Source: Anaerolineae bacterium
GTDB lineage: Bacteria; Chloroflexota; Anaerolineae; CG2-30-64-16
DNA length: 64,000 nucleotides
Assembly (NCBI GenBank): GCA_034432655.1
Contig: DAOUBP010000157.1
Coordinates: 6,874 to 70,873, forward strand
Direction of reading: 5' to 3'
The notes under the pieces are model-generated. The model did no database searches. It saw only the letters and a program-made list of their open reading frames with translations, and had not been told where the DNA came from. Position 1 is the stretch's first letter. Every line of letters starts with the position of its first letter. Below are positions 4,276-45,607 of the stretch, one piece after another. The translations under genes were made by a program, and so were the position numbers.

Positions 4276-4279
4276 AAAC

Positions 4280-28151: not shown

Positions 28152-29465
28152 GTGCGCAACCCTTATGTCACCGGGTCGTATGTCACCGGCAGCCAGCACT
28201 ACGGCCGGGAAGACCTGTTGGACTATCTGTTGAACGGCGACAGCCGTGCCTGCTGGGTGGTGGGCACCCGCCGGATCGGAAAAACCTCGTTACTGAGACA
28301 GTTGGAGCTGTTGGCCGGCGCCGGCAAGCGCCTGGTCCCGCTTTATTGGGACATGCAGGGGTGCAATTCCTTCGCCTGCCTGGGCCGTTATCTGGCCGAC
28401 GCCGTGCGTGATCGGGCCGCGCGGCTTGAGCCATTGGGGGTGACCGAGGCGTTGATGGAAGAAGAGGACCCCCTGGCTTTGCTGGTCAATCTGCGCCGGC
28501 TGGCCCAACGCGCCGGCCGCGAACTGTTGCTCCTGGGCGACGAAACCGAAGTGCTGGTCAACATCGCGGCCGCGGAGCCGGAGGCCATGCAACGGCTGCA
28601 CCGCCAGCTTACCGCCGGGGTCGGGCTGCGCGTCGTGATGGCCTCCACGCGCCAGATCTACCGGATGCACGACGTATGTCGTGACTGGCCCACCTCGCCC
28701 TTCCTGTCCGGTTTCGATATGTCCCTGACCCTGGGCAGCCTGGAACAGGAGGCGGCCGAGGCGTTGATCTTGCAAACGCAGTCCAACCGCCGGGTACGAG
28801 CCGCCCCCGAGACAGTGGAGGCCATCTCGCGCGCCACCAACAACCATCCCTTCCTGCTGCAGGTGTTGTGCTCCCGGTTGTTCGTCACCAGTGGCCGGCT
28901 GCGCAACTTGACCCCTGAAGACCTGCGGGTGGATCCCCTGCTGGCGGGCTTTTTCGAGCACGATTTCCGCCAGCTCACCAACGCCGACCGGAGGACGGTG
29001 CTGGCCGTGCACCGGGAGAAACTGGCCGATGAAGCGCAGCTCATGAAAGTGACCGGGGACAACCCGGTGGAGCTCAGCCTGCGTCTGCACAACCTGGAGG
29101 GGCTGGGCTACCTGCGCCGCGCCTACGGCCGGATCGAGATCGGCAACGATTTCCTGGCGAACTGGCTGGCTGCGGCCGACGACAGGCTGGACATGCTGCC
29201 CCTTGCGGAGACCTCAGAAACGGCAGCCCGCCGCGCGTTCGTGCGCCAGCAGCTCCAGGACCTCCCTTCGCTGGTCGCCCAGCTGAACGCCCGGCGTTCG
29301 CGCCTGGTCGAGCTGGAGCTGATCCGCGCGCAAGAGCTCGCCAACGTCTCGCCACAGGTGCTGGCGGAGATCGAACAGGTGGAAAACGAAATCGTCGCGC
29401 TGCGGAGCGCGCTGGATCGGCGAGAAGGCTCGCCAGCATCTTCAAAAGGAGTGTCTGCTTTATGA
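28152..29465 (+). CDS. Soluble STAND/AAA-like P-loop NTPase, paralog of the upstream receptor C-terminal domain, with C-terminal coiled coil
   Basis: NPYVTGS...YGREDLL...VVGTRRIGKTSLLRQL. GTG start after AGAGGAG. C-terminal heptad-rich helix. Confidence 0.7.
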   Translation: MRNPYVTGSYVTGSQHYGREDLLDYLLNGDSRACWVVGTRRIGKTSLLRQLELLAGAGKRLVPLYWDMQGCNSFACLGRYLADAVRDRAARLEPLGVTEALMEEEDPLALLVNLRRLAQRAGRELLLLGDETEVLVNIAAAEPEAMQRLHRQLTAGVGLRVVMASTRQIYRMHDVCRDWPTSPFLSGFDMSLTLGSLEQEAAEALILQTQSNRRVRAAPETVEAISRATNNHPFLLQVLCSRLFVTSGRLRNLTPEDLRVDPLLAGFFEHDFRQLTNADRRTVLAVHREKLADEAQLMKVTGDNPVELSLRLHNLEGLGYLRRAYGRIEIGNDFLANWLAAADDRLDMLPLAETSETAARRAFVRQQLQDLPSLVAQLNARRSRLVELELIRAQELANVSPQVLAEIEQVENEIVALRSALDRREGSPASSKGVSAL

Positions 29466-30601
29466 CGACAACAATTCCCCTGGTTGATCTGCAGGCGCAG
29501 TATGCTGCCATCCAGGACGAGATTGACGCAGCTATCCGGCGGGTGGTGCAAAGCGCTAACTTCATCATGGGGCCTGAAGTCCACAACTTCGAGGAAGCTT
29601 TTGCCCGCTTCGTCGGTTGTGCCGAGGCGGTAGGGGTCGCCTCGGGCACCGCGGCCCTGCACCTGGCGCTACTGGCCTGTGGCATTGGGCCGGGAGATGA
29701 GGTGATCACCACGCCTTTCACGTTCTACGCCACAGCTGAGGCCATCGTCCAGGCCGGGGCTACGCCTATCTTTGTGGACATTCGACCCGACACGTATAAT
29801 ATGGATCCGGAGAAACTGCCCGCGGCGATTACGCCGCGGACGCGAGCTATCATTCCGGTGCATCTGTTTGGCCAGCCCGCAGACATGGACCCGATCTTGG
29901 CCGTGGCGCGGCAGCACGGACTGTGGGTGATCGAAGACGCTGCCCAAGCTCATGCTGCAGACTATCGCGGCCGACGCTGTGGAAGCATCGGCGACCTGGC
30001 TTGCTTCAGCTTTTTCCCAAGCAAGAACCTGGGCTGCTATGGTGATGGCGGAATGGTGACCACCAACGACCCGACACTGGCAGCGCGCATACGGAGGCTG
30101 CGCGATCATGGCCGGGTCAGCAAATACGAACATGTCGAGCCAGGCTGGGGCTATCGGCTGGACGCCTTGCAGGCCGCGATTCTGGCCGCTAAACTGCCTC
30201 ATTTGGAACAGTGGACCGAACAACGACGCGCGGCAGCACGCCGTTATGCTGAACTTTTGCAAGACTCTGAAGTGATCTTACCGGTGGAACTGCCCGGCAA
30301 CCGACACGTTTATCACCTGTACGTGATCCGCACGCCGCGGCGCGATGAGCTGTATCAGCATCTGGCTGCGCAGGGGATCGGTGTGGGGATCCATTACCCG
30401 TTGCCGTTACATCTTCAACCTGTACATCGCAACATGGGCTGGGGGCCGGGCTCGTTTCCGGTGGCCGAGTTCGTCGCCAACGAAGTGCTCTCGCTGCCCC
30501 TCTACGCCGAGATCACCCCGGAACAGCAGGCCCGAGTAGCGAGTGCGCTCCTGGCGTTCACAAGTCAAGGTAACGGGCGGCGAGAAAAGCGAAAACCATG
30601 A
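29462..30601 (+). CDS. DegT/DnrJ/EryC1/StrS family PLP-dependent sugar aminotransferase
   Basis: Family-typical N-terminus (PLVDLQAQYAAIQDEIDAA) and PLP-Lys region FSFFPSKNLG. Confidence 0.9.
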   Translation: MTTTIPLVDLQAQYAAIQDEIDAAIRRVVQSANFIMGPEVHNFEEAFARFVGCAEAVGVASGTAALHLALLACGIGPGDEVITTPFTFYATAEAIVQAGATPIFVDIRPDTYNMDPEKLPAAITPRTRAIIPVHLFGQPADMDPILAVARQHGLWVIEDAAQAHAADYRGRRCGSIGDLACFSFFPSKNLGCYGDGGMVTTNDPTLAARIRRLRDHGRVSKYEHVEPGWGYRLDALQAAILAAKLPHLEQWTEQRRAAARRYAELLQDSEVILPVELPGNRHVYHLYVIRTPRRDELYQHLAAQGIGVGIHYPLPLHLQPVHRNMGWGPGSFPVAEFVANEVLSLPLYAEITPEQQARVASALLAFTSQGNGRREKRKP

Positions 30602-31680
30602 GCAAGCGCAGAACGACCGACTATGCGCGGCGCGAGACAGCGGATGTCCTTCCGGCTTTCCCGGCCAACGCCTTCCCCGGCGACCGGACGCACCGGCAAT
30701 CGGCGGACGGACCGAGAGTATCGGTCTTAGTGCCGGCGCATGACGAAGCAGGCAACGTCGCCGAACTGGTGGCCCGGGTCGGCCGGGCGTTCGCAGCGCG
30801 CGACTTGACCGCCGGCCAGGGTGAGCTGGTTGTCGTCAACGATGGCTCCACCGACGGGACGGGAGAACTGCTCGAACAGCTCAAGCCTGACTACCCGTTT
30901 CTGCGCGTCATCCACCATCGGCGCAATTTGGGTTTGACGGCCGCGTTGCGCACCGGCTTTCGGGCTGTGCGCGGCGATCTGATCCTGTTTCTGCCGGCCG
31001 ATCTTGAATCGGACCCCGAGACTGATATCCCCTTGCTGCTGGACAAGCTGGCCGAAGGGTATGACATCGTGGCTGGCTGGCGCCAGGGCCGCAAAGAAGG
31101 CAAGGTCTTCGCCTCCGGGATTTATAACCTGGTATCGCGCTGGCTGTTCGGGTTGCAGCTACACGACATGAACTGGATCAAAGGCTTCCGTCGTGAGGTG
31201 ATCGAGTCTTTGCCGCCGCTGCGCTCCGACTGGCACCGTTTTATCCTGCACATTGCTGCCCACCAGGGCTATCGCATCGGCGAGGTGGCAACTCCCTGGC
31301 ACAAGCGCCGCGCCGGCCGTTCGAAATTCGGGCTCAGCCGCATCCCTATTTCACTCCTCGATGTATTGGTGGTGTGGTTTTTGCTCACCTTCAGCCGCGC
31401 GCCCATGCGCTTTTTCGGCGGGCTAGGGCTCGCCTCGCTGACTTTGAGCGGCCTGACCTTCTTGTGGCTGTTGTGGCTGTGGCTGGCCTATGAAACCCAA
31501 CGCCGGCCTGTTTTCTGGGCAGCCAGCGGCCTGGCCATCGCCGGCCTGCTGCTCTTCCTGATCGGGTTTGTCGCCGAGTTGGTGGTAAGCCAGGCTGACC
31601 AGCTGGCCGAGATTGAGCGATCCCTGCGCGTTTCTCCGTCTTCTCTTCAGGCCCCCGGAGAGGATCGGGAGGGCGCATGA
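30598..31680 (+). CDS. GT2 polyprenyl-phosphate glycosyltransferase (ArnC/GtrB/DPM-synthase-like) with C-terminal TM helices
   Basis: VLVPAHDEAGNV, VVVNDGSTDGT and DAD motifs, plus 2 C-terminal TM helices. Confidence 0.85.
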   Translation: MSKRRTTDYARRETADVLPAFPANAFPGDRTHRQSADGPRVSVLVPAHDEAGNVAELVARVGRAFAARDLTAGQGELVVVNDGSTDGTGELLEQLKPDYPFLRVIHHRRNLGLTAALRTGFRAVRGDLILFLPADLESDPETDIPLLLDKLAEGYDIVAGWRQGRKEGKVFASGIYNLVSRWLFGLQLHDMNWIKGFRREVIESLPPLRSDWHRFILHIAAHQGYRIGEVATPWHKRRAGRSKFGLSRIPISLLDVLVVWFLLTFSRAPMRFFGGLGLASLTLSGLTFLWLLWLWLAYETQRRPVFWAASGLAIAGLLLFLIGFVAELVVSQADQLAEIERSLRVSPSSLQAPGEDREGA

Positions 31681-32957
31681 AGATCGGCGTCCTCACTCAC
31701 AACTATCCCCGTTTCCCCGGCGATTTCTCCGGCCGCTTTGTCGAAGCCCTAAGCGAGGAGCTAGCCGCGCAGGGGCACCAGGTCACCGTATTGGCTCCCT
31801 GGGACCCGGCCTATGCGCGCCGGCCTGACGATCACCGCGTGGAAATACTTCTCTACCGCTACGCACCACGGGCCGACTGGCATCGCCTGGGCTACATGCG
31901 CACCATGAAGGCCGATCTGGCGATGCGCAAGTTGACCTATTTGCTGGCCCCGGGGCTGTTCCTGGCCGGAGCGCGGGCGGTGTTGCACTGGACTGCAGCA
32001 GCCCGCCCCGATGTGCTGCATGCCCACTGGGTGCTTCCCAACGGCTTTTTGGCTGCGCTGGCCGCCCGGCGCTATCACGTCCCGTTGGTGGTCTCGATCC
32101 CCGGTTCGGATGCGACCGTGGCGACGGCAAGCCCGGCGTTCCGCTGGATGGCCCGTTTTGCGTTCGCCACTGCCGGGCTGATCACCGCCAACTCCACTGC
32201 GCTACGAGACGTGGCAGTGAAACAATTGGGCGCTGATCCGGCCAGGTTTGACCTGATTGCCTACGGCGTGGCACCCGACGCACTGCGCCCGGACCCTACA
32301 AACACCGCCGCATTGCGGGCACGCCTGGGCATCCCGGCCAACGCCTTTGTCGCGCTGGCCGTGGGCCGAATGGTGCATAAGAAGGGGTTCGATCACCTCT
32401 TGCGCGCGGCAGCGATCGTGCAAGGCACCAGCGAAGACCAGAAACAGCCGAGCGCCGGTGCGACGTCCCCCGAGCCCAACCCTGCCACCCTTGCGCCCCT
32501 GCACCTGGTCATGATCGGCGAGGGGGACTTGTGGGCCGAATGGCAGGCCTTGGGCGAAAGGCTGGGGCTAAATGACCGCGTGCACTGGGTAGGCAACGTC
32601 CCTACCGACCGTATCGGCGTCTTCTACAACATGGCCGACGTGCTGGTGATGCCGGCGGTCACACTGCCTGCCGATGGGCTGAACGTGACGGTGCTGGATG
32701 CTATGTCATGCAGCAAGCCGGTAATCGGCACTGCGGCCGCGGGGAACGAGCTGGCAATTCGCGACGGGGTCAACGGTTTTCTGTTGCCAGAAGGAGACGA
32801 TCTTGCTCTGGCGAACGCCCTGGTGAAGCTGATGCATGATCCTGAGCTGTGTGCCAAGATGGGCCGCGCCGGCCGACAGCTCATCGAGACGGAACTGGGC
32901 TGGCCGGTCCTGGCACGCCGCTACCTGGCCCACTTCGAACAACTCAAGAGGTCCTGA
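31677..32957 (+). CDS. Glycosyltransferase family 1 (GT4-like)
   Basis: GT-B fold N-terminus KIGVLTHNYPRFPG. C-terminal EG-type region. Confidence 0.8.
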   Translation: MKIGVLTHNYPRFPGDFSGRFVEALSEELAAQGHQVTVLAPWDPAYARRPDDHRVEILLYRYAPRADWHRLGYMRTMKADLAMRKLTYLLAPGLFLAGARAVLHWTAAARPDVLHAHWVLPNGFLAALAARRYHVPLVVSIPGSDATVATASPAFRWMARFAFATAGLITANSTALRDVAVKQLGADPARFDLIAYGVAPDALRPDPTNTAALRARLGIPANAFVALAVGRMVHKKGFDHLLRAAAIVQGTSEDQKQPSAGATSPEPNPATLAPLHLVMIGEGDLWAEWQALGERLGLNDRVHWVGNVPTDRIGVFYNMADVLVMPAVTLPADGLNVTVLDAMSCSKPVIGTAAAGNELAIRDGVNGFLLPEGDDLALANALVKLMHDPELCAKMGRAGRQLIETELGWPVLARRYLAHFEQLKRS

Positions 32958-34012
32958 TGACCGAATTACTCCGTTTCGGCCTGATCGGCTGTGGCCGTGT
33001 GGCACCCCGCCACGCCGACTCGCTGAGTTCACTGCCCGGCGTCAAGCTGGTTGCCGTGGCTGACATTAGGGCAAGCCGCGCCGAACGCTTTGGCGCGCAA
33101 TACGGCGCGACCGCGTACACCGATTATCGGGCGCTCCTGGACCGGTCCGACGTTGACGTGGTCAACATTTGCACACCCAGCGGTACCCACGCGCCAATTG
33201 CGCTGGACGCGCTTTCCGCCGGAAAGCATGTCCTGGTGGAGAAGCCAATCGCCTTGTCGTTGGCCGACGCCAACCGTATGATCGCAGCGGCCAAACAGGC
33301 AGACCGCAGGCTGGGCGTGGTGTTGCAAAACCGTTACAACCCGCCTATGCAGGACCTCAAACGCGCAGTGGATGAAGGCCGTTTGGGCCGGTTGTTTCTG
33401 GGCAATGCCACCGTGCGCTGGTATCGCACCCAGGAGTACTACGAGGACGACTGGCACGGCACCTGGGCCATGGACGGTGGCGCGTTGATGAATCAATCCA
33501 TTCATCACATTGATGCGTTGCAGTGGCTGATGGGGCGGCCGGAGAGCGTGTTCGCCTACACTGCGACCCTGGCCCATCGCATGGAAGCAGAAGATGTCGG
33601 CGTGGCCGTGATCCGCTTTTCCGAGGGCGCCCTGGCCACGGTAGAAGGTTCCACGGTAACCTACCCGGAAAACCTGGAGGGATCGGTGGCGGTCTTCGGC
33701 GAGCGGGGCTCCGCCAAAGTGGGCGGCACCGCGCTCAACCGCAAGGTCTTGTGGAAAATCGCCGGGGAGCTAGAGCGCGAACGCGAGCTGCTGACCCGTG
33801 AGCAGGTGGACCCGCCCTCGGTGTACGGTGCCAGCCACAAGGCCGTGATCGCTGACATGGCTGCTGCTGTGCACGAGGGACGTGATCCGCAGACTAATGG
33901 TTGGGAGGCGCGCAAGTCACTGGCCCTGGTGCTGGCCATGTACGAGTCGGCGCGCACCGGCCAGCCGATCACCATCGGCAACGGCATCTGGGACGAAGAG
34001 CCGGCAAGCTGA
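32957..34012 (+). CDS. Gfo/Idh/MocA family oxidoreductase (UDP-sugar dehydrogenase WbpB-like)
   Basis: LRFGLIGCGRVAPRHA Rossmann. EKP and NRY motifs. Confidence 0.85.
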   Translation: MTELLRFGLIGCGRVAPRHADSLSSLPGVKLVAVADIRASRAERFGAQYGATAYTDYRALLDRSDVDVVNICTPSGTHAPIALDALSAGKHVLVEKPIALSLADANRMIAAAKQADRRLGVVLQNRYNPPMQDLKRAVDEGRLGRLFLGNATVRWYRTQEYYEDDWHGTWAMDGGALMNQSIHHIDALQWLMGRPESVFAYTATLAHRMEAEDVGVAVIRFSEGALATVEGSTVTYPENLEGSVAVFGERGSAKVGGTALNRKVLWKIAGELERERELLTREQVDPPSVYGASHKAVIADMAAAVHEGRDPQTNGWEARKSLALVLAMYESARTGQPITIGNGIWDEEPAS

Positions 34013-34114: not shown

Positions 34115-35284
34115 TCAGCCATGCAGGGCCGCACCCAGTGCCTCGATCACCCGGACAACCTGTTCATCCTGCAATTCGGGAAACATGGGGAGGCTCATTA
34201 CCTCGCGTGCCGCCTGTTCCGTGACCGGCAACCCGGTCCCTATCCAGACACGATCCTGATACGCGGACTGACAATGAACCGGCAGCGGATAGTGTACTAA
34301 CGTGCCGATCCCAGCGGCCGCCAAACGCTCTCGCAGCACGTCACGCTGTGGGTGTCGTACCACAAACTGATGATAGACATGGGTGACCCCGGGCCGCTCC
34401 ACAGGCAACACGAGACTGGTATTGCTCAAACCAGCCCGATACCTGGCGGCCAATACACGGCGCCGCTCGTTCTCGGCCCGCAGATGGCGCAGCTTGACGC
34501 GCAATATCGCCGCCTGCAGTTCATCCAATCGGCTATTGTATCCCGGCAAGGCGCTGACATAGCGCTCACGCCAGCCGTATTCGCGCAGCAGCCGCGCCCG
34601 CTCGGCCAGTTCAGGATCGTTGGTGGCGATTGCACCGCCATCCCCTAGCGCAGCCAGGTTCTTAGTGGGGTAAAAGCTGAAGGCAGCTATGTCACCGATG
34701 GAACCGGTCATCCGCTCGCCGATCGAAGCACCGTGTGACTGCGCGCAGTCTTCGATCAGCCACAGGTCATAGCGCCGGGCAATCTCGCCCAGCGCGACCA
34801 TGTCGGCCGGGTGACCGTAGAGATGCACGGCGATGATAGCGCCGCGCCGCGCCGGCCCTCGCCTGCTGGCGCCAGCCCCCCGCTCTCTGCTCACCGCCCG
34901 CACTGCATCCTCGAGTCGGTCAGGGTCCAGGGTATAAGTAGGAGCCGAGATGTCCACCAAGCAAGGGGTCGCGCCAGCATGTTCGATCGCCGCTACTGTG
35001 GCCACCGCGGTGTGCGAAACGGTGAACACCGGCGCGCCGTGGCCGACCTGGCAGGCGCGCAGAGCGAGATGTAGGGCATCCGTCCCGCTGGCCACTCCGA
35101 TCACATGGCCGACGCCCAGGAACGCAGCAAACTCACGTTCAAAACACGCCACTTGCGGGCCTAAGATGTAACGACCGCCCGCCAACGCCTGGGCAATGGC
35201 CGCGTCTATTTCGGCGCGGTGGGCCAGGTAGTTTGCCAAAGGGCTCGTTTGGGGGACGGGTGTGGTCATGGGATTACTAGACAT
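34115..35284 (-). CDS. DegT/DnrJ/EryC1/StrS family aminotransferase
   Basis: PLP-Lys region FSFYPTKNLAALGDGG. Start moved to MSSNPM because the upstream ORF part overlaps the epimerase gene. Confidence 0.85.
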   Translation of the reverse strand: MSSNPMTTPVPQTSPLANYLAHRAEIDAAIAQALAGGRYILGPQVACFEREFAAFLGVGHVIGVASGTDALHLALRACQVGHGAPVFTVSHTAVATVAAIEHAGATPCLVDISAPTYTLDPDRLEDAVRAVSRERGAGASRRGPARRGAIIAVHLYGHPADMVALGEIARRYDLWLIEDCAQSHGASIGERMTGSIGDIAAFSFYPTKNLAALGDGGAIATNDPELAERARLLREYGWRERYVSALPGYNSRLDELQAAILRVKLRHLRAENERRRVLAARYRAGLSNTSLVLPVERPGVTHVYHQFVVRHPQRDVLRERLAAAGIGTLVHYPLPVHCQSAYQDRVWIGTGLPVTEQAAREVMSLPMFPELQDEQVVRVIEALGAALHG

Positions 35285-36272: not shown

Positions 36273-36397
36273 GATCCATAAAGCGTCTGTTTGGGTATCT
36301 CGATGGTCAACGTAAACCGATAATAACGCAAGGCCTATTCGTTGGCAAATGGAGATTTCAAACCCAGTAACAGCATTCACCTTCCCACGCGCTCATC

Positions 36398-36418
36398 TTC
36401 TATCTGCGTTCCCTATAA
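36398..36418. promoter_or_regulatory. 21-nt motif TTCTATCTGCGTTCCCTATAA, copy 2
   Basis: Exact match to 499..519. Lies in the divergent intergenic region between the epimerase (minus) and the 36458 (plus) gene. Confidence 0.35.
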
Positions 36419-36457
36419 CTTTCTCACGCGCCACATCTATGATATGATTTTATTATT

Positions 36458-37399: not shown

Positions 37400-37402
37400 C
37401 CT

Positions 37403-39994
37403 GTGATTGCGACCCCTGCTTCCCATTGGACCCCAGCCCCCGCCGCACGACGCGGTGCAACCTGGCTCGTCATCGGGCTGATGCTGCTGTTCGCTGCCTG
37501 GTTCTCGGCCTACAGCATCCGTCTACATGACGCACACCTGACCCATAAGGCCGACTTGGGGCAGATTGATCATGCCATCTGGAACACGGCCCACGGCCGG
37601 TTACTGCAAGAGATAAAGGATGATCACCTCAGCACGCGGCTGACCGACCACGTGGAACCGATTTTTTTGTTGGTAGCCCCGATCTTCTGGCTGTGGGATG
37701 ACGTGCGCGCCCTGCTGGTGTTGCAAGCGGTGGCGTTGGCTGCGGGCGCCTGGCCGATTTACCTGTTCGCGCGCCAGAAGCTCATCCGGGTGGCGCCCGG
37801 CGCAATGGCGGAGTGGGGTGCAGCGGTATTTGCGGCAGCCTATCTTCTGTACCCGGCGCTGCAAGCAGCCGCCGTCGCCGAGTTCCACGCGCTGCCACTG
37901 GCTGCGCCGCTGATCGCGGCCGCGGTGTGGGCAGCCGAAGAGCAACGCTGGGGCCGGTTTGTCCTCTGGACTGTAGCAGTGATGGCGGTTCAAGAAGGCG
38001 CGGCGCTGTTGGGTGCCACGCTGGGCGCCTATGTGGCGGTCACCAGCGGTCGCGCCGCCTGGCAGAACCGGGTTTCGCGGAGAAACCCGATTTCGACGGG
38101 GCCACTCGCCAAGGGCGTCGTCAGTGGCCTGGGCGTCTTCCTGGCCGGCCTGGTTTGGTTCGGCCTTGCTACCTTCGTCATCATCCCCCGCTTTGCGGCT
38201 GCGGCTTACGCCCTGGATCAGAGCCCTTACGTGGCCCGTTATGGCGCGCTGGGCGATTCTTTCGGAGATGTGTTGATCGCCCTGGTCACCCGACCTGCGA
38301 CAGTCGTGCAAATCGCAGGGGAGCCGCTGCGCGTGCAATATCTGCTGGGACTGCTGCTGCCCGCGGCCGGGCTGGCATTACTCAGCCCCGGGCTACTGCT
38401 GGCCAGCGCACCCTTGCTGCTGGCGAACCTGCTCAGCGCGTTCCCCTTGCAGTTCTCGGGTGAATCGCACTATTCTGCTGCGTTGGTACCATTCTTTGTG
38501 CTGGCGGCTGCCTCAGGTGCGGCACGGGTGCTGGGACGTCAGAAAGCGCAACAAGGCTGGGCAGCCTTGATGGGCAACCGGCTGCCGGCCTTTATGTTCA
38601 GCGTCGTAGCGATGTGCGCCATCGTGTTTCAAGTGGCCGAAGGGTTCACACCCATCGGCGGCGAATTCCGACGGAGCCCCAGCCGAGGCTGGCCGGAGGT
38701 GACTGCCCATCACCGACTGCTGGAGCGCCTCGCCCGCGACATCCCGGCCGACGCAGCCGTCTCTACCACACCGCCGCTACATCCACATCTCTCGCACCGC
38801 CAGCGCATCTACCTTTTCCCGGTCATCGGGGACGCGGACTATGTGCTGGTAGATGTGGCCGGCACCACCGACATGCACCCGGCCGATGTCAAGGCCAAAC
38901 TGGAGCGACTGATCGCCACCGGCGAGTTTGGCGTGGTGGCTGCCGAGGACGGCTATCTGCTCTTGGCCCGTGATGCAAGCAGGCCAGTTGGCGGCGTTCC
39001 CGATCCCTTCTTCGACTTCGCCCGGGCCAAAAAGCCACCACGCTACCCTCTGGATGTGACATTTGGCGATCATCTCACACTGATCGGGTATGATGTGGAG
39101 GATAACCCCAAATGGCGGCTGACGCGCTTGCGGTTCTACTGGCAGGTTGACAAGCCCTTGCCTGCCGACGCGACTTTAAAGTTTCAAGTGATGACGCCCT
39201 GGGGCGAAATCGCTGATGATAGTGCGTTGCGTCCCCCGCCAGCACTCCTGTGGTACCCGCCAGCGCAATGGCGTCCGGGAGAAACGTTGATGATCGAGAC
39301 CCTGCCGTGGTTCATGCCACGGGCCTGGGCCGCAACGCTGTCCCTCACAACCAGCTCCGGACCGTTGTGGCCGCAGGTCAACGCCGCATCCCCCGTCCCC
39401 GAGCTGGAAATAGCCCCGGATGGCCGGTTGCGCCTGCCGGCATGGACGCGAAAAGAAGGCGCATTGGTGCCGCTGAGCGGCTCGCCCTATCCCTCCGAAC
39501 CGGCCGAGGCGCGCTTTGCCCAGGGGAACTGGACAGTCCGATTGCTGGAATGGGCGGCGCCGATGGCGGCAGCGCCGGGTGGCGTTCTGCCGGTGATGCT
39601 GCATTGGCGCGCTAACGGCCCCGCCGGACAAGACCTGGCAGTGTTCCTGCATTTGCGCGACGCCACAGGGCGCACCGTAGCCCAGGGCGATGCCGGCCCG
39701 GCCTGGTTCGTGCCACGGCCGACCTCACAGTGGCCGACCAAAAACGGCGATCCCGCGGGCCTCTGGAGTGCCCATGCGATTTCACTGCCGGACGACATGC
39801 CGGAAGGCCGTTACGAGCTGGTGGTAGGCTGGTACGATTGGCAGAGCGGTATGCGGCTCCCATCAGTGGACGCAGTGGGGAACCCCAACGGAGATGAATA
39901 CGTCCTTGGCCCCGTAACGCTTGACCAACGGGCCGTACCGCGACCTGATATCGCTTGCCTGTTGCTGCCGGAAAGCTGTGCGGCGCAGGAGTGA
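37403..39994 (+). CDS. DUF2079-family polytopic membrane protein (putative GT-C-like glycosyltransferase) with large C-terminal extracytoplasmic domain
   Basis: HDAHLTHKADLGQIDHAIWNTAHG N-terminal motif. Multi-TM. Confidence 0.65.
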   Translation: MIATPASHWTPAPAARRGATWLVIGLMLLFAAWFSAYSIRLHDAHLTHKADLGQIDHAIWNTAHGRLLQEIKDDHLSTRLTDHVEPIFLLVAPIFWLWDDVRALLVLQAVALAAGAWPIYLFARQKLIRVAPGAMAEWGAAVFAAAYLLYPALQAAAVAEFHALPLAAPLIAAAVWAAEEQRWGRFVLWTVAVMAVQEGAALLGATLGAYVAVTSGRAAWQNRVSRRNPISTGPLAKGVVSGLGVFLAGLVWFGLATFVIIPRFAAAAYALDQSPYVARYGALGDSFGDVLIALVTRPATVVQIAGEPLRVQYLLGLLLPAAGLALLSPGLLLASAPLLLANLLSAFPLQFSGESHYSAALVPFFVLAAASGAARVLGRQKAQQGWAALMGNRLPAFMFSVVAMCAIVFQVAEGFTPIGGEFRRSPSRGWPEVTAHHRLLERLARDIPADAAVSTTPPLHPHLSHRQRIYLFPVIGDADYVLVDVAGTTDMHPADVKAKLERLIATGEFGVVAAEDGYLLLARDASRPVGGVPDPFFDFARAKKPPRYPLDVTFGDHLTLIGYDVEDNPKWRLTRLRFYWQVDKPLPADATLKFQVMTPWGEIADDSALRPPPALLWYPPAQWRPGETLMIETLPWFMPRAWAATLSLTTSSGPLWPQVNAASPVPELEIAPDGRLRLPAWTRKEGALVPLSGSPYPSEPAEARFAQGNWTVRLLEWAAPMAAAPGGVLPVMLHWRANGPAGQDLAVFLHLRDATGRTVAQGDAGPAWFVPRPTSQWPTKNGDPAGLWSAHAISLPDDMPEGRYELVVGWYDWQSGMRLPSVDAVGNPNGDEYVLGPVTLDQRAVPRPDIACLLLPESCAAQE

Positions 39995-40061: not shown

Positions 40062-42191
40062 GTGAAACGAAACCGACGCGCCGATCCTGCTCGGCTCTGG
40101 CTGGCAGCCATGTTGCTGCTGGCCCTCGCCCTGCGCGTCTACCGGCTGGACGCGCAAAGTCTGTGGTACGACGAGGCAGTCACCGCGCAGGTGGCCGGCC
40201 GCGGCATCGCCGAGCTCACCCGCTGGACCGCCGATGACATCCAACCGCCGCTGTATTACTACGTGGTGGCCGGTTGGACGCGGCTGGCCGGCCGCTCCGA
40301 ATGGGCGCTGCGTTTCCCTTCTGCCTGCTTCGGCATCCTGACGGTGCCGCTGCTTTGGGCGGCCGGCCGGCGCCTGTTTGGCCGCAGGAACACCGGGCGC
40401 TGGGCGGCCGGCCTCGCGGCGTTGCTGGCTGCGACCTTACCGCTCTACGTCTACTACGCTCAGGAAGCACGCATGTACACGCTGCTGACGTTCCTGGGCG
40501 CCCTGGCCGGGTATGCCCTGCTGCGGACGACGGCCAGGAAGCCGGGGGCAGAGGACAGGGAGCAGGGGACAGGCGCCAGGGAGCAGGCAACCGAGGACAG
40601 GCAGCAGGAGACAGAGGACAAAGGGGCCAGGGAAACCAGTTCAGGCCGGCCAGGCGGATTTGCGCCCTTGGTTGTCAGGGCAACAGGCTCGACCTGGTGG
40701 CTCGTTTTCGTGCTGGCTGCGGCGGCCTTGCTCTACACCCACTACTTCGGCATCTTCTTGCTGGGCGCATATGGCATCTGCTGGTTGGCGTGGTGGACCC
40801 TGACAGCTCACGCGACAAGGCTGCGCTCGCTGACCGCGTTCGCGATCTCCGCCCTGACGATCATCGTGCTCTATCTGCCCTGGCTGCCGGCCATGCTCAA
40901 CCGTTATCGGGCCGACGCATCCTACTGGCGGGGCGCGCTGAAACTGGGCGAAGCGCTGCGCCACGTCGCGATCAACTTCAGCGTGGCCGCACCGGAGATG
41001 ATGCTGGAAAGCGAGGCCGTGCGACTGCTGCCCATCTTCGGCGGGGCCTTTGCCCTGGCCTTGATCTCGCTCTTCTGGCAGGGCAGACATGCGCGCCAGG
41101 CCAGCCTTCTGCTGATCGTCCTGCTGGTGCCGATAATCGCTGTGCTGTTCCTGGCCTCGCGCACCCCTAAGTTCAACCCACGCTACCTGATGCTGGCATC
41201 ACCGGCGTATGTGCTGCTGTTGGCGGGCGGCGTCAGCGCGCTGCGTGGACGACGTGAAAAGCCCCCGACACGACAAGGCATGCAGCACGCCACACGCAGC
41301 ACACCATACGCCATACGCCACACCTCAGCCCTCCTGCTGACCGCCTTCCTGGTTGCAGCGTCTCTGGTCAGCCTTCGTAACTGGTTCACCGACCCGGCCT
41401 TCACCAAGGCCCAGTGGCGCGAGTTGACCGCCTTGGTGCGCGCCGAACGCGCGCCAGATGAAGCTGTGCTGCTGGTCTCCGGCCATGCGTATCCGGCCTG
41501 GGACTACTACGCGGCCGATATCCCGGTTGTGCGGCTGCCCCAGATCGAGATCCTGGACGTCAACGCCGTGTTGGATTTCGGTGTCGGCGCAGAGCTGGCC
41601 ACTGCCCTGGCCGGCAAAAAGGGCGCCTGGCTGGTAAGCTGGCAGGATGAGGTAGTGGATCCCGTGGGGATCGTGCCCTACCTCCTGGAGCGCGCTGGGG
41701 CCGAGCAGGAAGTCCCCCGCAGCTTCTGGCACCTGAAACTACGGCACTGGCGGCTGCAGCCTGATGCCGCCTTCCCGACCGAGCCGCAACCCCAGCACCT
41801 CCAGGGCGCCAACTTCGACCACAAACTGGCGCTGTTGGGCTGGGATGACCCGGTGGGTGGCGAGATCATCATGTACTGGCGCGTGCTCAACATGCTGACC
41901 CAAGACTACCAGATCGCGCTGGTGATCGAGGACGCGGCAGGCAACCGGTTGGGCCAGTGGGATGGCCGGCCGGCCGGTTACCATTACCCGACGTTTCGCT
42001 GGCGGCCCGGCCAGGTTTTGTTCGGCCGTTACCCGCTCCCGCTGCCGGCTGGGGCGGCCGCCGGGGATTACACCATCACTTTGACCGTCTACGACCCCGC
42101 CGACCCCAGCGGCCTGGACATCCGTGACGTGGCCGATAACCCGGCCGGCAAACAGGCACGCCTGGGGCCGGTACGGATGAGGGGGGATTAG
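40062..42191 (+). CDS. GT-C glycosyltransferase, ArnT/PMT (GT39/GT83)-like, with heptad-repeat-encoded low-complexity inserts
   Basis: YDEAVTAQVAGRGIAE...DIQPPLYYYVVAGWTRLAG N-terminal loop motif. Multi-TM. The start (GTG 40062 or ATG 40110) is uncertain. Confidence 0.7.
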   Translation: MKRNRRADPARLWLAAMLLLALALRVYRLDAQSLWYDEAVTAQVAGRGIAELTRWTADDIQPPLYYYVVAGWTRLAGRSEWALRFPSACFGILTVPLLWAAGRRLFGRRNTGRWAAGLAALLAATLPLYVYYAQEARMYTLLTFLGALAGYALLRTTARKPGAEDREQGTGAREQATEDRQQETEDKGARETSSGRPGGFAPLVVRATGSTWWLVFVLAAAALLYTHYFGIFLLGAYGICWLAWWTLTAHATRLRSLTAFAISALTIIVLYLPWLPAMLNRYRADASYWRGALKLGEALRHVAINFSVAAPEMMLESEAVRLLPIFGGAFALALISLFWQGRHARQASLLLIVLLVPIIAVLFLASRTPKFNPRYLMLASPAYVLLLAGGVSALRGRREKPPTRQGMQHATRSTPYAIRHTSALLLTAFLVAASLVSLRNWFTDPAFTKAQWRELTALVRAERAPDEAVLLVSGHAYPAWDYYAADIPVVRLPQIEILDVNAVLDFGVGAELATALAGKKGAWLVSWQDEVVDPVGIVPYLLERAGAEQEVPRSFWHLKLRHWRLQPDAAFPTEPQPQHLQGANFDHKLALLGWDDPVGGEIIMYWRVLNMLTQDYQIALVIEDAAGNRLGQWDGRPAGYHYPTFRWRPGQVLFGRYPLPLPAGAAAGDYTITLTVYDPADPSGLDIRDVADNPAGKQARLGPVRMRGD
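40532..40640 (+). repeat. Heptad-periodic repeat (xxxCAGG units) inside GT-C CDS
   Basis: Encodes RKPGAEDREQGTGAREQATEDRQQETEDKGARE. A second heptad tract (CATACGC units) lies at about 41281-41322. Confidence 0.6.
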
Positions 42192-42287
42192 GGAGTGCGG
42201 ATGGCGAATTACGGACTGCCGCTCATGAGAATAATTTGAGTTGCAATTTTGACGTTGGGTAATCTATCGTTTAGACTCTCACCACCA

Positions 42288-42333
42288 TTCGTTGATTCGC
42301 CGATTCGCTGATTCGCCGATTCGCTATTCGCTC
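42288..42333. repeat. Heptad tandem repeat GATTCGC x6 (reverse complement of the GCGAATC family)
   Basis: Seen directly, upstream of the 42349 gene. Confidence 0.75.
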
Positions 42334-42348
42334 ATGCGGAGGTTTCTC

Positions 42349-43653
42349 ATGCGGGTGCGCCCCCGTTTGGTTTTGTGGTTTGGGCTGATGCTGTTGCTCA
42401 GCAGCTGTTCTCTGGGGCCGCTGTTATCTGAAGTCTCGGTCAACCCTGACGTCATCAGCCCCAATGCGGACGGCCAGGACGATGTTACATTGATCCGCTA
42501 TCGCATCAACCGGACCGCCGATGTTTCGATCTACTTTACGGACCAGAGTGGCCGACGCTTCTTCTTCCGCCAGAACGAACGCCGTTCGCCCGGCAGGTAC
42601 AACGTCTATTGGGGCGGCGTCATCAACGATCCCGAGGTGCGCACGTTGAACGGCAGCACCATGTTGGTGGAAAGCCAGGTGTTGCCCGACGGCCGGTATC
42701 TCTGGACCATCGAGGCGGTGGATGACCGGGGGCGCAGTCAAAAGGTAGAGGGCCAGATGATATTGCAGGGCGCCGATACGACGCTGCCGGAGCTCCGCAA
42801 CTTCACTGTGGTGCCGCAAGAGTTCACCCCGAACCAGGACAGCATCCGCGACCGCGTCTCCATCTCATACTACCTGACCAAGAAAGCTGAACGTGTCCAG
42901 GTGTATCTGGAGCCTTTGACGCCGGTGCTGGGACGAACGCTGCCCAAGTATCCTGTTGCCGAGAAGCAGTCTTCCTCCACAGCCGAGCCCGGCGACCCCG
43001 GCTATCACGGCTATGACTATGATGGCGGCGTGGACCTCTTTGCCGAGCCGCCTCCCGATGGAGATTACATCGTCTGGGCCCGCGCGGAGGATAAGGTGGG
43101 GAACCGGGTGGTGGTTTCTTCCACTCTGACCATCAAAGAGGGGGGCAAACCGCGCGCTGAGGTGGTTGGGGGCGAGATTGATTGGGCCGGCGAGATGAAC
43201 CGCGTCGTCAGCGTACCGCTGGGACAAACCCTGTGTTTCACGGCTACCGTGCAGAACATCGGGCCGGTGCCCATCCGCACCGCCGGGCCCTGGCCCGGAC
43301 AGACCTTCAAGTTTAGCGAAAACTACAATACCCTGGCAGCCCGTTCGGGTGAGGCGTCATGGTACCAGCAAGCCGGCATCTGGCGGTTCGGCATCAACTT
43401 CGACACCACCGGCGTGGACTTCCCCTTCCGCTGGGCCGTGGGCCGGCCCGAGGACCTGGAGCTGCGCATCATTGACGGACAGCCGCAATACTACCTGTTG
43501 CCGGGGAAGCGCGGGCTGGTATCCGGCTGCATCGAGTTCGACCAACCGCCGCCGGTGGGCACTCTTTTCTGGTGGGGCGGCTTGATCCACGAGTTTGTGG
43601 AAGTGGCCAACAATTACATTGATCGGATCACCGTGTCGGTGGGCACGCCTTAG
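42349..43653 (+). CDS. Hypothetical lipoprotein/secreted protein
   Basis: GGAGG RBS. Signal with lipobox LLSSC. No confident domain. Confidence 0.5.
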   Translation: MRVRPRLVLWFGLMLLLSSCSLGPLLSEVSVNPDVISPNADGQDDVTLIRYRINRTADVSIYFTDQSGRRFFFRQNERRSPGRYNVYWGGVINDPEVRTLNGSTMLVESQVLPDGRYLWTIEAVDDRGRSQKVEGQMILQGADTTLPELRNFTVVPQEFTPNQDSIRDRVSISYYLTKKAERVQVYLEPLTPVLGRTLPKYPVAEKQSSSTAEPGDPGYHGYDYDGGVDLFAEPPPDGDYIVWARAEDKVGNRVVVSSTLTIKEGGKPRAEVVGGEIDWAGEMNRVVSVPLGQTLCFTATVQNIGPVPIRTAGPWPGQTFKFSENYNTLAARSGEASWYQQAGIWRFGINFDTTGVDFPFRWAVGRPEDLELRIIDGQPQYYLLPGKRGLVSGCIEFDQPPPVGTLFWWGGLIHEFVEVANNYIDRITVSVGTP

Positions 43654-43763
43654 GACAGGGGGTAGGGGTCAGAGGTCAGTCCTCGTGCTGCCCGGGGCGT
43701 GAAATCTCAGGCAACTCCTGCCGGGTTGCCCTGCTGGGCAGCGGGTTAATGACGAGATGGGAG

Positions 43764-44822
43764 ATGGACGCGCAACACGGAGTACGCAATACGCAATACG
43801 GAGTACGCAATACGCAATACGGAGTACGCAATACGCTCGCCATCATCGTCGTCAGCTACAACGTGCGTGATTTGTTGCGCGCCTGCCTGCAAGCCACGTA
43901 CGCCAGCCTGGCGCTCAGCCCGGAGATCGCGGCAACCGTGTGGGTGGTAGACAACGCCTCGGCCGATGGCAGCGCCGAGATGGTAGCGGCCGAATTCCCC
44001 CAAGCGCGCTTGATCGCCAGCCCCCAGAATCTGGGCTTCGCCGGCGGCAACAACTTGGTGTTGCATGCACTGGGCTTTGGAGATTCAACACAACAGGATG
44101 ATCGGAAACACTCCCCAAGCCCCAATCCCCAATACGTCCTTCTGCTCAACCCCGACGCCGAACCCATCGGCGACGCCATCGGACAGATGGTCCGTTTCTT
44201 GCGCGAACACCCGGGAGTTGGTGGCGCCGGCGCGCAGCTCCAGTACCCCGATGGCAGATTTCAGCACGCCGCGTTCGCCTTTCCGGGGCTGCTGCAACTG
44301 TGGTTCGACCTCTTCCCCCCGCGGCCGCGGCGGCTGTTAGATTCCCGCCTCAACGGCCGCTACCCCAGACGGCGCTACCAGGCCGGGCAACCCTTCCCGG
44401 TTGATTTCGTCTTGGGCGCGGCGTTGCTGGTGCGGCGAGAGGCGATCGCGGCGGTGGGCCTGCTGGATGAGGGCTACTTTATGTACGCCGAAGAGGTGGA
44501 CTGGTGCTGGCGGATGCGCCGCGCGGGCTGGCCGCTATGGTGCGTGCCCTCGGCCCGCGTGATCCATCATGGCGGCGCCAGCGCGCAGCAATTCCGCTCG
44601 CAATCGTTCGTCAACCTCTGGCGCAGCCGCCAGCGCTTGTATTCTCGTTTCTATGGGCCGCTGCGGCAAAGGCTGGCAAGCTGGATCGTGCGCCTGGGCA
44701 TGGCAGCCGAGATCAGGCGGGCAAAAGCCGGCTACAGACGCGGGGAGATCAGCATGGAAGAACGGGAGGCCCGAATCCAGGCAGCGCAAACCGTGAAAAA
44801 GCTATTCGCGAGGAACAGATGA
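43764..44822 (+). CDS. Glycosyltransferase family 2
   Basis: IIVVSYNVRDLL...VDNASADGS...GFAGGNN GT2 motifs. The 5' end carries a repeat-encoded (GVRNTQY)x3. Confidence 0.75.
   Translation: MDAQHGVRNTQYGVRNTQYGVRNTLAIIVVSYNVRDLLRACLQATYASLALSPEIAATVWVVDNASADGSAEMVAAEFPQARLIASPQNLGFAGGNNLVLHALGFGDSTQQDDRKHSPSPNPQYVLLLNPDAEPIGDAIGQMVRFLREHPGVGGAGAQLQYPDGRFQHAAFAFPGLLQLWFDLFPPRPRRLLDSRLNGRYPRRRYQAGQPFPVDFVLGAALLVRREAIAAVGLLDEGYFMYAEEVDWCWRMRRAGWPLWCVPSARVIHHGGASAQQFRSQSFVNLWRSRQRLYSRFYGPLRQRLASWIVRLGMAAEIRRAKAGYRRGEISMEEREARIQAAQTVKKLFARNR
43779..43836 (+). repeat. 21-nt unit (GGAGTAC-GCAATAC-GCAATAC) x about 3 within the 5' coding region of the GT2
   Basis: Seen directly. Confidence 0.75.
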
Positions 44823-45607
44823 GTGAACTTTTGTACCCTGTTCAGCTGGCGGCCATTATCCTGACCAAAAACGCGGCCCGCCATATCGGCGACTGCATCG
44901 CCACCCTGGCGTTCGCCGACCAGGTCGTGGTCTCCGACTCGTACAGCGACGACGGCACGGTGGAACTGGCCCGCCAGGCTGGCGCGATCGTGATCCAGCG
45001 GCCGTTCGACAACTTCGCCGGTCAACGTAACGCGGCTATGGAGGCGGTGCAGGCCGAATGGATCTTCTTCGTGGACGCAGATGAGCGCATCCCTCCCGCG
45101 CTGGCCGCAGAGGTGCGGCAGGTGATTGCCGAACGCCCCGAGGTGGGATGGTGGGTGCCGCGGCACAACTACATCGTGGGGCGACATGTACGCTACGGCG
45201 GGTTCTACCCGGATTATCAATTGCGACTGATGCGCCGGGATCGCGCGCGCTACGACCCAGCGCGGCCTGTGCACGAGGTCGTTCTACTGGACGGGCCTTC
45301 AGGTGAACTTCAGAACGTGATGATCCATTACAACTATGACACCTGGGCCCAATTCCACGCCAAACAACGACGCTACGCGCAACTGGAGGGAGAGGCTTTA
45401 CGCCAACGGGGCATAAGACCGTGGCCACATAAATTCGTGCGCCAGCCGCTGCGCGAATTCTGGCGCCGTTATGTCAGGTTACAAGGCTACCGGGACGGAT
45501 GGATCGGCTTCAAACTGGCGGTTTTACTAGGTTTCTACTATGGCTTTATGCCCCACTGGTATTTATTGAAAGGCGCCTCAGGATCCTCGGCAGCCCGGCG
45601 TCAATGA
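44819..45607 (+). CDS. Glycosyltransferase family 2
   Basis: ATGA overlap with the upstream GT2. LAAIILTKNAARHIGDCI and DSYSDDGT motifs. Confidence 0.8.
   Translation: MSELLYPVQLAAIILTKNAARHIGDCIATLAFADQVVVSDSYSDDGTVELARQAGAIVIQRPFDNFAGQRNAAMEAVQAEWIFFVDADERIPPALAAEVRQVIAERPEVGWWVPRHNYIVGRHVRYGGFYPDYQLRLMRRDRARYDPARPVHEVVLLDGPSGELQNVMIHYNYDTWAQFHAKQRRYAQLEGEALRQRGIRPWPHKFVRQPLREFWRRYVRLQGYRDGWIGFKLAVLLGFYYGFMPHWYLLKGASGSSAARRQ

Follow-up and report, generated by a model that had tools for sequence, protein, structure and literature searches.

Gene content and organization of the locus

A 64-kb stretch of DNA from an Anaerolineae bacterium (contig DAOUBP010000157.1; the whole stretch is called the window and positions in it are used throughout) carries a group of genes between 28152 and 45607 that was treated here as a glycosylation cluster. 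Gene families were assigned by Pfam and NCBIfam scans of the translations in the open reading frame (ORF) list. The cluster encodes two DegT-type aminotransferases, a Gfo/Idh/MocA oxidoreductase (GFO) and an extended short-chain dehydrogenase/reductase (SDR), together with glycosyltransferases (GTs) and several membrane proteins (Table 1). An earlier note on this DNA had described these genes as an Arn-like polyprenyl-phosphate aminosugar pathway, and every gene that it named was found in the ORF list and by Pfam at coordinates which were exact or differed by a few codons.

Table 1. Genes of the glycosylation cluster in the window and further members of the SDR clade in other loci (TM, transmembrane; PLP, pyridoxal phosphate)
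Gene product	Position	Strand	Family evidence and remarks
AAA_16-like NTPase, 437 aa	28152..29465	+	weak AAA_16/AAA_22 matches
DegT1, PLP-dependent sugar aminotransferase	29462..30601	+	PF01041 2e-127
GT2 with three predicted C-terminal TM helices	30598..31680	+	PF00535 2.6e-28
GT4 (GT-B), cytoplasmic glycosyltransferase	31677..32957	+	PF00534/PF13579
GFO, Gfo/Idh/MocA oxidoreductase, WlbA/WbpB-like	32957..34012	+	PF01408/PF22725
DegT2, second aminotransferase	34115..35284	-	PF01041 2.8e-109
Atypical extended SDR	35277..36272	-	PF01370 4e-48
LPG_synthase_TM (LPG_TM) membrane protein, predicted flippase	36458..37399	+	PF03706 39.3 bits, gathering score 33.4
DUF2079 membrane protein, predicted GT-C	37403..39994	+	PF09852 5e-64; NCBI start 37481
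PMT_2-family GT-C	40062..42191	+	PF13231 49 bits, gathering score 26.1; NCBI start 40110
Lipoprotein-like secreted protein	42349..43653	+	LLSSC lipobox-like signal; weak CHU_C, Big_13
GT2b, GT2 (GT-A)	43749..44822	+	PF00535/PF13641
GT2c, GT2 (GT-A)	44819..45607	+	PF00535 2e-13
Further SDR clade member, locus L085	10001-10990		
Further SDR clade member, locus L089	2106-3092		
Further SDR clade member, locus L082	10001-10993		

Stop and start codons overlap at most of the gene junctions, as observed for AAA_16/DegT1 and GT2b/GT2c (both ATGA), DegT1/GT2, GT2/GT4, GT4/GFO (where the ATG of GFO at 32957 overlaps the GT4 stop codon) and SDR/DegT2 (8 nt). These overlaps point to translational coupling and to two plus-strand operons, with the SDR-DegT2 pair being transcribed divergently. 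Promoter and terminator scans are weakly informative; the promoter scan gave back-to-back promoter-like sites in the gap at 36273-36457 and a minus-strand site at 36348-36320 that favours an SDR start at 36272. The G+C content is uniform throughout the locus (~0.61-0.66), so there is no sign of a recent insertion. No regulatory RNA was detected in the locus by Rfam and tRNA scans. The exact DUF2079 and SDR protein sequences have no database record, and genes identical to those of the locus were found only in short Logan contigs of run SRR7903765.

Conservation across Chloroflexota

Related loci were collected by a scan of one genome per species, which gave 173 confirmed relatives; 80 loci were retained and the window proteins were compared with them by tblastn. 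All 80 belong to metagenome-assembled genomes (MAGs) of Chloroflexota (Anaerolineae/Caldilineae), for example Ca. Amarolinea aalborgensis and Ca. Fredericiella danica. Homologs of the DUF2079 protein also come from Chloroflexota (Anaerolineae, Caldilineales and "Chloroflexi bacterium" MAGs). The recurrent gene order was found to be DegT1, GT2, GT4, (GFO), LPG_TM, DUF2079, (SDR, DegT2), PMT_2, lipoprotein, GT2, GT2. Recurrence of this order beside DUF2079 in dozens of independent MAG contigs makes the grouping far more than chance, and a fortuitous juxtaposition of genes was rejected on this ground. The locus is a genuine conserved cluster of filamentous Chloroflexota.

The constant part of the cluster across the 80 loci is a membrane core composed of GT2, GT4, LPG_TM, DUF2079 and PMT_2. 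DegT1 lies directly upstream of GT2 in at least 13 loci and GT4 comes after GT2 in most of the related loci. Presence was counted in the 33 loci that have at least 8 kb on either side of DUF2079, where DegT was observed in 23, LPG_TM in 17 (fusions not counted), PMT_2 in 15, and the TM-anchored GT2 and the atypical SDR in 14 each.

The sugar-tailoring genes form the variable part and differ from locus to locus. For example, L002 and L010 have GFO and no DegT, while L003, L006 and L061 have DegT1 and GFO together with a different SDR, and L020, like many others, combines DegT1 with the atypical SDR and DegT2 and lacks GFO. GFO and the atypical SDR were found to be mutually exclusive among the related loci that carry either of them, and the window is exceptional in holding both GFO and the SDR/DegT2 pair. 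GFO orthologs of at least 74% identity are confined to the closest relatives. A fixed machine combined with a variable sugar is typically seen in surface-glycan loci, and the variation of sugar genes around a fixed membrane core suggests an O-antigen-like diversification of the surface. In L020, an IS605 OrfB/TnpB gene (with a Cas12f-like TNB domain; 4237-5406) was observed to be inserted between the AAA-like gene and DegT1.

Membrane proteins of the conserved core

The nearest solved relatives of the TM-anchored GT2 are ArnC (89 bits, 2.8e-24), GtrB (62 bits, 4e-16) and the archaeal dolichol-phosphate-mannose (Dol-P-Man) synthase DPMS (61 bits, 1e-15), and a TM scan placed its three helices at residues 245-263, 276-294 and 312-330. 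The earlier description of an ArnC-like GT2 with C-terminal TM helices is therefore borne out. A GT-A domain, C-terminal TM helices and homology to ArnC, GtrB and DPMS are the features of a polyprenyl-phosphate synthase, and all were found in this protein. By family it is predicted to be a polyprenyl-phosphate sugar synthase rather than an ArnC equivalog, since its top NCBIfam match is PgfS at 90 bits (cut-off 500) and the ArnC model NF007986 gives 84.9 bits (cut-off 529). The adjacent GT4 has weak relatives in the PDB, namely BshA, an MshA-like enzyme, PimB' and PglA.

The LPG_TM protein and all of its 30 aligned orthologs match PF03706, the family of the MprF flippase domain. It scores below the cut-off of TIGR00374, and MprF structures in the PDB were matched neither by the single sequence nor by a 31-sequence profile. 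The gene is present in 45 loci and in most of them lies directly upstream of DUF2079. Furthermore, the two proteins are found as fusions, in 11 of the 120 listed clusters of DUF2079 homologs and in eight extracted ORFs (565-1212 aa). This combination of adjacency and fusion is the strongest evidence that both proteins act on the same lipid-linked substrate, and the LPG_TM protein is predicted to be the flippase for a lipid-linked sugar. A GtrA domain was not detected in any protein of the locus.

The DUF2079 protein has about 13 TM helices followed by ~400 aa of extracytoplasmic beta-rich domains. Its AlphaFold model is confident (pLDDT 87.8) and gave significant Foldseek matches only to STT3A (E 6e-6) and STT3B (1.6e-4), both at probability 1.0 and with low TM-scores of 0.30-0.38. 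STT3 proteins are the catalytic subunits of oligosaccharyltransferase. Residues D51, D56, R79, D82, H83 and E85 were found to be invariant and are located in the loop after TM1, which we infer to face outward. DUF2079 is predicted to be a GT-C glycosyltransferase. The literature searched made no mention of DUF2079, and PF09852 was named there only in unrelated work. For this uncharacterised family the cluster suggests a role that can be tested, namely a GT-C fed by a fused or adjacent MprF-type flippase.

In Foldseek, the PMT_2 protein matches ArnT best (5ezm; E 4.5e-8, TM-score 0.57 on the target, 15% identity), followed by AglB, STT3, AftA, AftD and EmbA-EmbB, with no PMT structure among them. 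At the sequence level no PDB match was obtained, nor any match to an ArnT model of NCBIfam. Y36, D37 and E38 after TM1 are invariant and resemble a GT-C motif of the catalytic type. The PMT family PF02366 gave 20.7 bits, which is below its cut-off of 22.7, and a MIR domain was not detected. Of the earlier description of this protein as an ArnT/PMT-like GT-C, the ArnT part is favoured by the fold and by PF13231, and the PMT part is not supported. A grouping with PMT protein-mannosyltransferases, which the earlier note had named as a result that would speak against its proposal, was thus not observed.

The C-terminal domains of the DUF2079 (38990-39991) and PMT_2 (41400-42188) proteins are homologous (BLASTP 2e-9), with two copies being present in DUF2079. 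The shared domain is a beta-sandwich that matches no Pfam family and shows weak Foldseek similarity to the O-antigen-binding (carbohydrate-binding) domain of Wzt.

Aminotransferases and the WlbA-like oxidoreductase

The best PDB matches of DegT1 are 7b0d (392 bits), DesV (349), QdtB (336) and WbpE (321 bits; 7e-95), as compared with 226-235 bits for ArnB. The same ranking was observed for DegT2, with 7b0d at 346, DesV at 323, QdtB at 308 and WbpE at 227 bits, and ArnB at 147-155. Perosamine synthase, like ArnB, falls far below these enzymes for both proteins. DesV, QdtB and WbpE are C3-aminotransferases, and ArnB and perosamine synthase act at C4. By similarity, both DegT proteins are closest to C3-aminotransferases and well above ArnB, and against the ArnB equivalog NF008658 they reach 265.7 (DegT1) and 189 bits (DegT2) with a cut-off of 631. 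Nothing on 7B0D was found in the literature searched. The lysine of the motifs SFFPSK in DegT1 and SFYPTK in DegT2 is probably the PLP lysine. A 3-dehydrase function like that of ColD or E1 was rejected for DegT2, as SFYPTK is read as keeping this lysine and RfbH scores lower.

The closest PDB entries to GFO are 3q2k (3.6e-81) and 3q2i (5e-78), which are deposited merely as "oxidoreductase" and "dehydrogenase" and which we take to be WlbA of Bordetella pertussis and Chromobacterium violaceum, respectively. WlbA is a homolog of WbpB, a UDP-GlcNAcA (UDP-N-acetylglucosaminuronic acid) 3-dehydrogenase. GFO therefore resembles a nucleotide-sugar 3-dehydrogenase, in agreement with the WbpB-like oxidoreductase described earlier, and together with DegT1 it forms, by similarity, the pairing of a WlbA/WbpB-like 3-dehydrogenase with a C3-aminotransferase. 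Taken together, the C3-type DegT proteins and the WlbA-like GFO make 3-oxidation followed by 3-transamination of a sugar of the UDP-N-acetylhexosamine(uronic acid) type, UDP-HexNAc(A), the best-supported route, and a 3-amino type of sugar is favoured. Candidate substrates of GFO and DegT1 would be UDP-GlcNAc, UDP-GlcNAcA or UDP-Glc. Neither the locus nor the Pfam-scanned ORFs of the window yielded WbpA (6-dehydrogenase), WbpD (3-N-acetyltransferase) or WbpI (2-epimerase).

The SDR clade with TRQ and NxxxK motifs

The SDR matches GalE, RmlB and UXS structures nearly equally (100-122 bits, with UXS at about 100). Its best NCBIfam matches, LegB and RmlB, are both far under their cut-offs (117.7 bits with a cut-off of 365 for the RmlB model TIGR01181) and the ArnA model NF005998 gives 33.5 bits with a cut-off of 777. 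Alignments to GalE and RmlB structures show that the NAD-binding motif and the catalytic Thr and Lys are kept. However, the Tyr of Y-x-x-x-K is replaced by Asn (N-G-I-N-K), and Arg-Gln (A-S-T-R-Q-I-Y-G) stands where dehydratases have Asp-Glu and decarboxylases have Ser-Glu. In the alignment with RmlB 8shh these changes appear as D to R, E to Q and Y to N. The protein consequently has neither the catalytic T-D-E and Y-x-x-x-K of the RmlB kind nor the T-S-E and Y-x-x-x-K of the ArnA type. It had been described earlier as a dehydratase/decarboxylase-like SDR; an extended SDR is indeed present, but the near-equal scores and the replaced dehydratase and decarboxylase residues do not support the rest of that description.

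Both motifs are unchanged in 29 of 31 Chloroflexota orthologs (at least 55% identity), the other two being one that is ambiguous at the Thr and one hit that does not extend over the motifs. In a search of 5.8 billion proteins, each of the 120 best clusters had at least 75% identity to the SDR; a cyanobacterium and a Blastocatellales acidobacterium were among them. Among representatives at 50% identity, R-Q and N-x-x-x-K persist down to ~39% identity, and relatives containing the Tyr appear only at ~45% identity and below. Such conservation across orthologs and phyla shows that the substitutions are not a product of decay, and the possibility of a pseudogene was rejected.

The clade is very widespread and 75-80% identical across Chloroflexota, Cyanobacteria and Acidobacteriota and its members are usually followed by a DegT gene or by a second epimerase-family gene. 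A DegT gene lies immediately 3' of the SDR both in the cyanobacterium Baaleninema (L089) and in Blastocatellales (L085), the product of the latter sharing 58% identity with DegT2, while elsewhere the second epimerase-family gene is found. This context suggests that the SDR provides a keto sugar to the downstream enzyme. Furthermore, the mutual exclusion of GFO and SDR and the C3 type of DegT2 leave room for a direct C3-dehydrogenase role in which the SDR would replace GFO; this is purely conjectural. No characterised member of the clade was found, and the literature searched holds nothing on an "NxxxK" SDR or on a Tyr-less sugar SDR paired with an aminotransferase. A large and strongly conserved Tyr-less clade with partners that consume keto sugars may mean a new sugar chemistry.

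The different SDR of L003 (~3678), L006 (~3986) and L061 (~3897) is located between GT4 and GFO and has H-x-x-x-K in place of Y-x-x-x-K. Judged by this motif, it is a second atypical SDR in the same type of cluster.

Proposed mechanism

The families and synteny described above indicate that the cluster is probably a lineage-wide (Anaerolineae/Caldilineae) system for extracytoplasmic glycosylation that operates through a lipid-phosphate carrier. In this scheme, either one unusual nucleotide amino sugar or two would be produced in the cytoplasm, with the WlbA/WbpB-like 3-dehydrogenase and DegT1 forming one route and the atypical SDR plus DegT2 a second. The GT2 gene is translationally coupled to that of DegT1, and its product would load the sugar on polyprenyl phosphate at the inner membrane face, and the LPG_synthase_TM protein would flip the polyprenyl-phosphate sugar. 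The DUF2079 protein and the ArnT-fold PMT_2 protein would then use the flipped sugar outside the membrane on an envelope acceptor. This acceptor would most likely be a glycan or glycolipid that is partly built by GT4 and the two soluble GT2s. The family assignments, the gene order with its fusions and the SDR residues were observed; from families and synteny we infer which carrier, flippase, sugar and acceptor are involved and how the steps follow one another.

The logic suggested by the earlier note (a nucleotide amino sugar, a lipid carrier, flipping and a GT-C) is thus retained, whereas synthesis of 4-amino-4-deoxy-L-arabinose (Ara4N) is not supported. A pentose amino sugar is disfavoured by the C3 type of the DegT proteins, by the lack of T-S-E and Y-x-x-x-K in the SDR and by a locus in which no formyltransferase or ArnD-type domain was detected and ArnE/F-like proteins are absent. 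Comparison with Arn profiles, which that note had suggested for ArnB, ArnC and ArnT, gave no locus protein that reaches an Arn equivalog cut-off. The placement of the DegT proteins in families of the deoxyhexose type, which it had listed as evidence to the contrary, was observed and speaks against Ara4N.

Several observations weigh against the proposed system. The assignment of the flippase candidate to LPG_synthase_TM comes from Pfam alone, and the Foldseek TM-scores of the DUF2079 model are low. The SDR is without the canonical catalytic Tyr, which puts its contribution to the pathway in doubt. No N-acyltransferase or deacylase domain was detected in the locus proteins, and there is hence no such enzyme to handle the free amine as the Arn pathway does. 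Finally, the occurrence of L002 and L010 with GFO and without DegT means that some lineages may carry a sugar other than an amino sugar.

A more far-reaching proposal can be made only tentatively. DUF2079 may be a new GT-C family, coupled or fused to an MprF-type flippase, that builds or decorates non-LPS (lipopolysaccharide) layers together with the ArnT-fold enzyme by means of a polyprenyl-phosphate 3-amino sugar; at the same time the TRQ/NxxxK SDR, which has a DegT partner in at least three phyla, may be a new Tyr-less enzyme that forms keto sugars, perhaps a direct C3-dehydrogenase in place of GFO. It is doubtful whether all of these parts hold jointly.

The acceptor and alternative explanations

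Chloroflexota have been reported to be without LPS and BAM genes, and the envelopes of Caldilineae are multilayered, with layers of polysaccharide or protein nature that were left undefined (PMC13319060). Lipid A is an improbable acceptor. For the LPS-free multilayered envelope of filamentous Chloroflexota, the cluster supplies concrete genes with which an amino-sugar surface glycan or glycolipid can be tested. Filamentous Chloroflexota occur in large numbers in activated sludge, sediments and hot springs.

The genes downstream of PMT_2 are relevant to the nature of the acceptor. The lipoprotein-like protein contains Ig-like or CHU_C-like repeats and its gene follows the PMT_2 gene in 15 loci (49-76% identity), while many loci are without it; it is a candidate partner or acceptor. 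GT2b is weakly similar to a rhamnosyltransferase, GlfT1 and MftF, with every NCBIfam match below cut-off, and is syntenic in 13 loci. GT2c is syntenic in 12 loci (52-82% identity). Pfam scans of the locus gave no Wzx, Wzy, ABC exporter or priming phosphoglycosyltransferase. This absence, together with the three soluble glycosyltransferases and the beta-sandwiches that resemble carbohydrate-binding modules, makes a glycan or glycolipid somewhat more likely than a protein as the acceptor. Such a gene set resembles the mycobacterial lipoglycan and arabinogalactan systems.

The conserved downstream lipoprotein keeps protein glycosylation alive as a reading. If the cluster were a PMT- or Pgf-like O-glycosylation system, its GT-C enzymes would modify Ser/Thr residues of lipoproteins or other secreted proteins, such as the downstream lipoprotein and proteins of the filament or sheath. 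The PMT_2 family with its D-E motif, the position of the lipoprotein gene directly after PMT_2 in 15 loci, and the oligosaccharyltransferase subunits as top fold matches of DUF2079 all agree with this. So does the top NCBIfam match of GT2, PgfS, which belongs to a protein-glycosylation operon of Streptococcus mutans, although its score stays far from the cut-off and neither GT-C has a PgfM-like NCBIfam match. Likewise, PF02366 stays below its cut-off, MIR was not detected, and the lipoprotein is missing from many loci. The beta-sandwiches of the GT-C proteins, being weakly similar to carbohydrate-binding modules, fit glycan acceptors better, and Emb and AftD are GT-C enzymes with such domains that act on glycans. 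We therefore regard O-glycosylation as unlikely.

A related explanation is that the GT-C proteins are polymerases like mycobacterial Emb, Aft and Mpt and would assemble a lipoglycan, or a polysaccharide of the wall or sheath, by adding sugars from polyprenyl-phosphate donors to a primer made by the GT4 and GT2 enzymes. Extracytoplasmic beta-sandwich domains on two GT-C proteins, the appearance of AftA, AftD and EmbA-EmbB among the fold matches and of PimB' and MshA-like enzymes among the GT4 matches, and a locus devoid of Wzx, Wzy, an ABC exporter and a priming phosphoglycosyltransferase speak for it. The Aft and Emb matches are nevertheless weaker than those to ArnT and oligosaccharyltransferase, and processive activity is not separated from single transfer by sequence, and this explanation is held to be rather improbable.

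The PMT_2 protein might instead flip the lipid-linked sugar like archaeal Agl23, with DUF2079 as the sole transferase. Purified Agl23 moved lipid-linked glycans across liposomes (PMC11182771), and TIGR03663 ("flippase activity-associated protein Agl23") is the only NCBIfam match of the PMT_2 protein. However, this match reaches 36 bits with a cut-off of 126 and covers the generic PMT_2 region only, Y-D-E is invariant, ArnT is the best fold, and the locus already has a dedicated flippase-like gene, so that this role is very unlikely.

Least probable is a true Arn pathway, from UDP-GlcA (UDP-glucuronic acid) through a 4-keto-pentose and UDP-Ara4N to undecaprenyl phosphate and transfer by ArnT onto a lipid A-like phosphate: the DegT-then-GT2 order mirrors arnB-arnC, ArnC and ArnT are the closest solved GT2 and closest fold, and UXS structures occur among the SDR matches, but the ArnA, ArnB and ArnC models score far below cut-off, both DegT proteins are 90-200 bits nearer to C3-aminotransferases, T-R-Q and N-x-x-x-K take the place of T-S-E and Y-x-x-x-K, Pfam detected no formyltransferase or ArnD-type deacetylase domain in any protein encoded at 28152-45607, ArnE/F-like small membrane proteins are absent from this region, which has no unassigned gaps to hold them, and the lineage is the one reported to be without LPS genes.

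Comparison with known systems

The proposed lipid-carrier glycosylation system shares features with several known pathways. Like the Arn (PmrF) system, it would combine a nucleotide amino sugar made by an aminotransferase, a GT2 acting on polyprenyl phosphate, flipping and an external GT-C. In the arn operon arnB directly precedes arnC, and here too an aminotransferase gene lies directly upstream of GT2, with ArnC being the nearest solved relative of GT2 and ArnT, by fold, that of PMT_2. The locus differs in having C3-type DegT proteins, an SDR that is not ArnA/UXS-like and no protein at an equivalog score, and in being without the formyltransferase, deformylase and ArnE/F. It also has an MprF-family flippase candidate, a second GT-C (DUF2079) and extra GT4 and GT2 genes, and its host lineage is reported to lack lipid A.

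In the GtrA/GtrB/GtrC, CsbB/GtcA/YfhO and PpgS/Rv3779 systems, a TM-tailed GT2, a small flippase and a GT-C are encoded together. These three-component systems decorate envelope polymers, also in LPS-free bacteria. The locus follows the same plan but uses LPG_synthase_TM, often fused to a GT-C, instead of a GtrA-family flippase, and has two GT-C proteins, one of them the uncharacterised DUF2079, as well as amino-sugar genes in the same operon.

The pairing of a Gfo/Idh/MocA 3-dehydrogenase with a WbpE-related DegT is shared with WbpB/WbpE (WlbA/WlbC) and GnnA/GnnB. The locus and the scanned ORFs of the window gave no WbpA, WbpD or WbpI, and GFO is present only in the closest relatives. The Pgf operon of S. 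mutans (PgfS, PgfM1, PgfE, PgfM2) likewise has a GT2, two polytopic membrane proteins and an SDR in one operon of an LPS-free bacterium. However, the membrane proteins of the locus have no detectable homology to those of Pgf, and Pgf itself is without aminotransferases. With MprF, the locus shares a TM protein of PF03706, and a fusion to the enzyme handling the flipped lipid recurs in LPG_TM-DUF2079. The locus protein differs in lacking an aminoacyl-phosphatidylglycerol synthase domain, and its presumed cargo is a polyprenyl-phosphate sugar rather than a phospholipid.

The distinctive features of the locus are the MprF-family flippase candidate that is often fused to a GT-C, DUF2079, an ArnT-fold second GT-C that shares its extracytoplasmic domain, and C3-type amino-sugar genes accompanied by a Tyr-less SDR.

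Flanking genes in the window

Orthologs of the AAA_16-like protein lie directly upstream of DegT1 or GT2 in nine loci (L002, L010, L011, L020, L022, L028, L035, L043 and L081), and it is possible that this protein is a regulator or accessory of the locus. The gene before it, at 24667-28125 (+), encodes a protein with an N-terminal signal/TM segment, extracytoplasmic Reg_prop beta-propeller repeats, a TM helix at ~820-846 and a cytoplasmic STAND/ATPase_2 NTPase. The two genes were observed to be conserved together upstream of the glycosylation genes in L002, L010, L020, L028 and L081, and the pair is a candidate envelope sensor or regulator.

Further upstream, a 973-aa protein is encoded at 21164-24085 (+). 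At least 10 TM helices are predicted in its first ~520 residues, and its large soluble C-terminal part ends in an ILEI/PANDER-like domain (PF15711, 6.8e-16). Located just before the locus, this protein is possibly a third membrane glycosyltransferase of the GT-C-like type; weak orthologs of it were found near DUF2079 in L018, L063 and L014. Between the gene of this ILEI protein and that of the STAND protein, 24141-24881 (-) encodes a small secreted protein that has two LysM repeats (peptidoglycan-binding).

Elsewhere in the window, an HMG-CoA reductase with an N-terminal domain (mevalonate pathway) is encoded at 14118-15659 (-) and a polyprenyl synthase at 6220-7236 (+). ARAGORN called a tRNA-Ser at 15330-15419, inside the HMG-CoA reductase ORF, which was not confirmed by Rfam. 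In addition, a second DPM1/ArnC/PpgS-like GT2, which has no C-terminal TM helices and is not syntenic in relatives, is located 2 kb downstream of the locus at 47845-48777 (-). This protein could serve as a second polyprenyl-phosphate sugar synthase for one of the GT-C enzymes.

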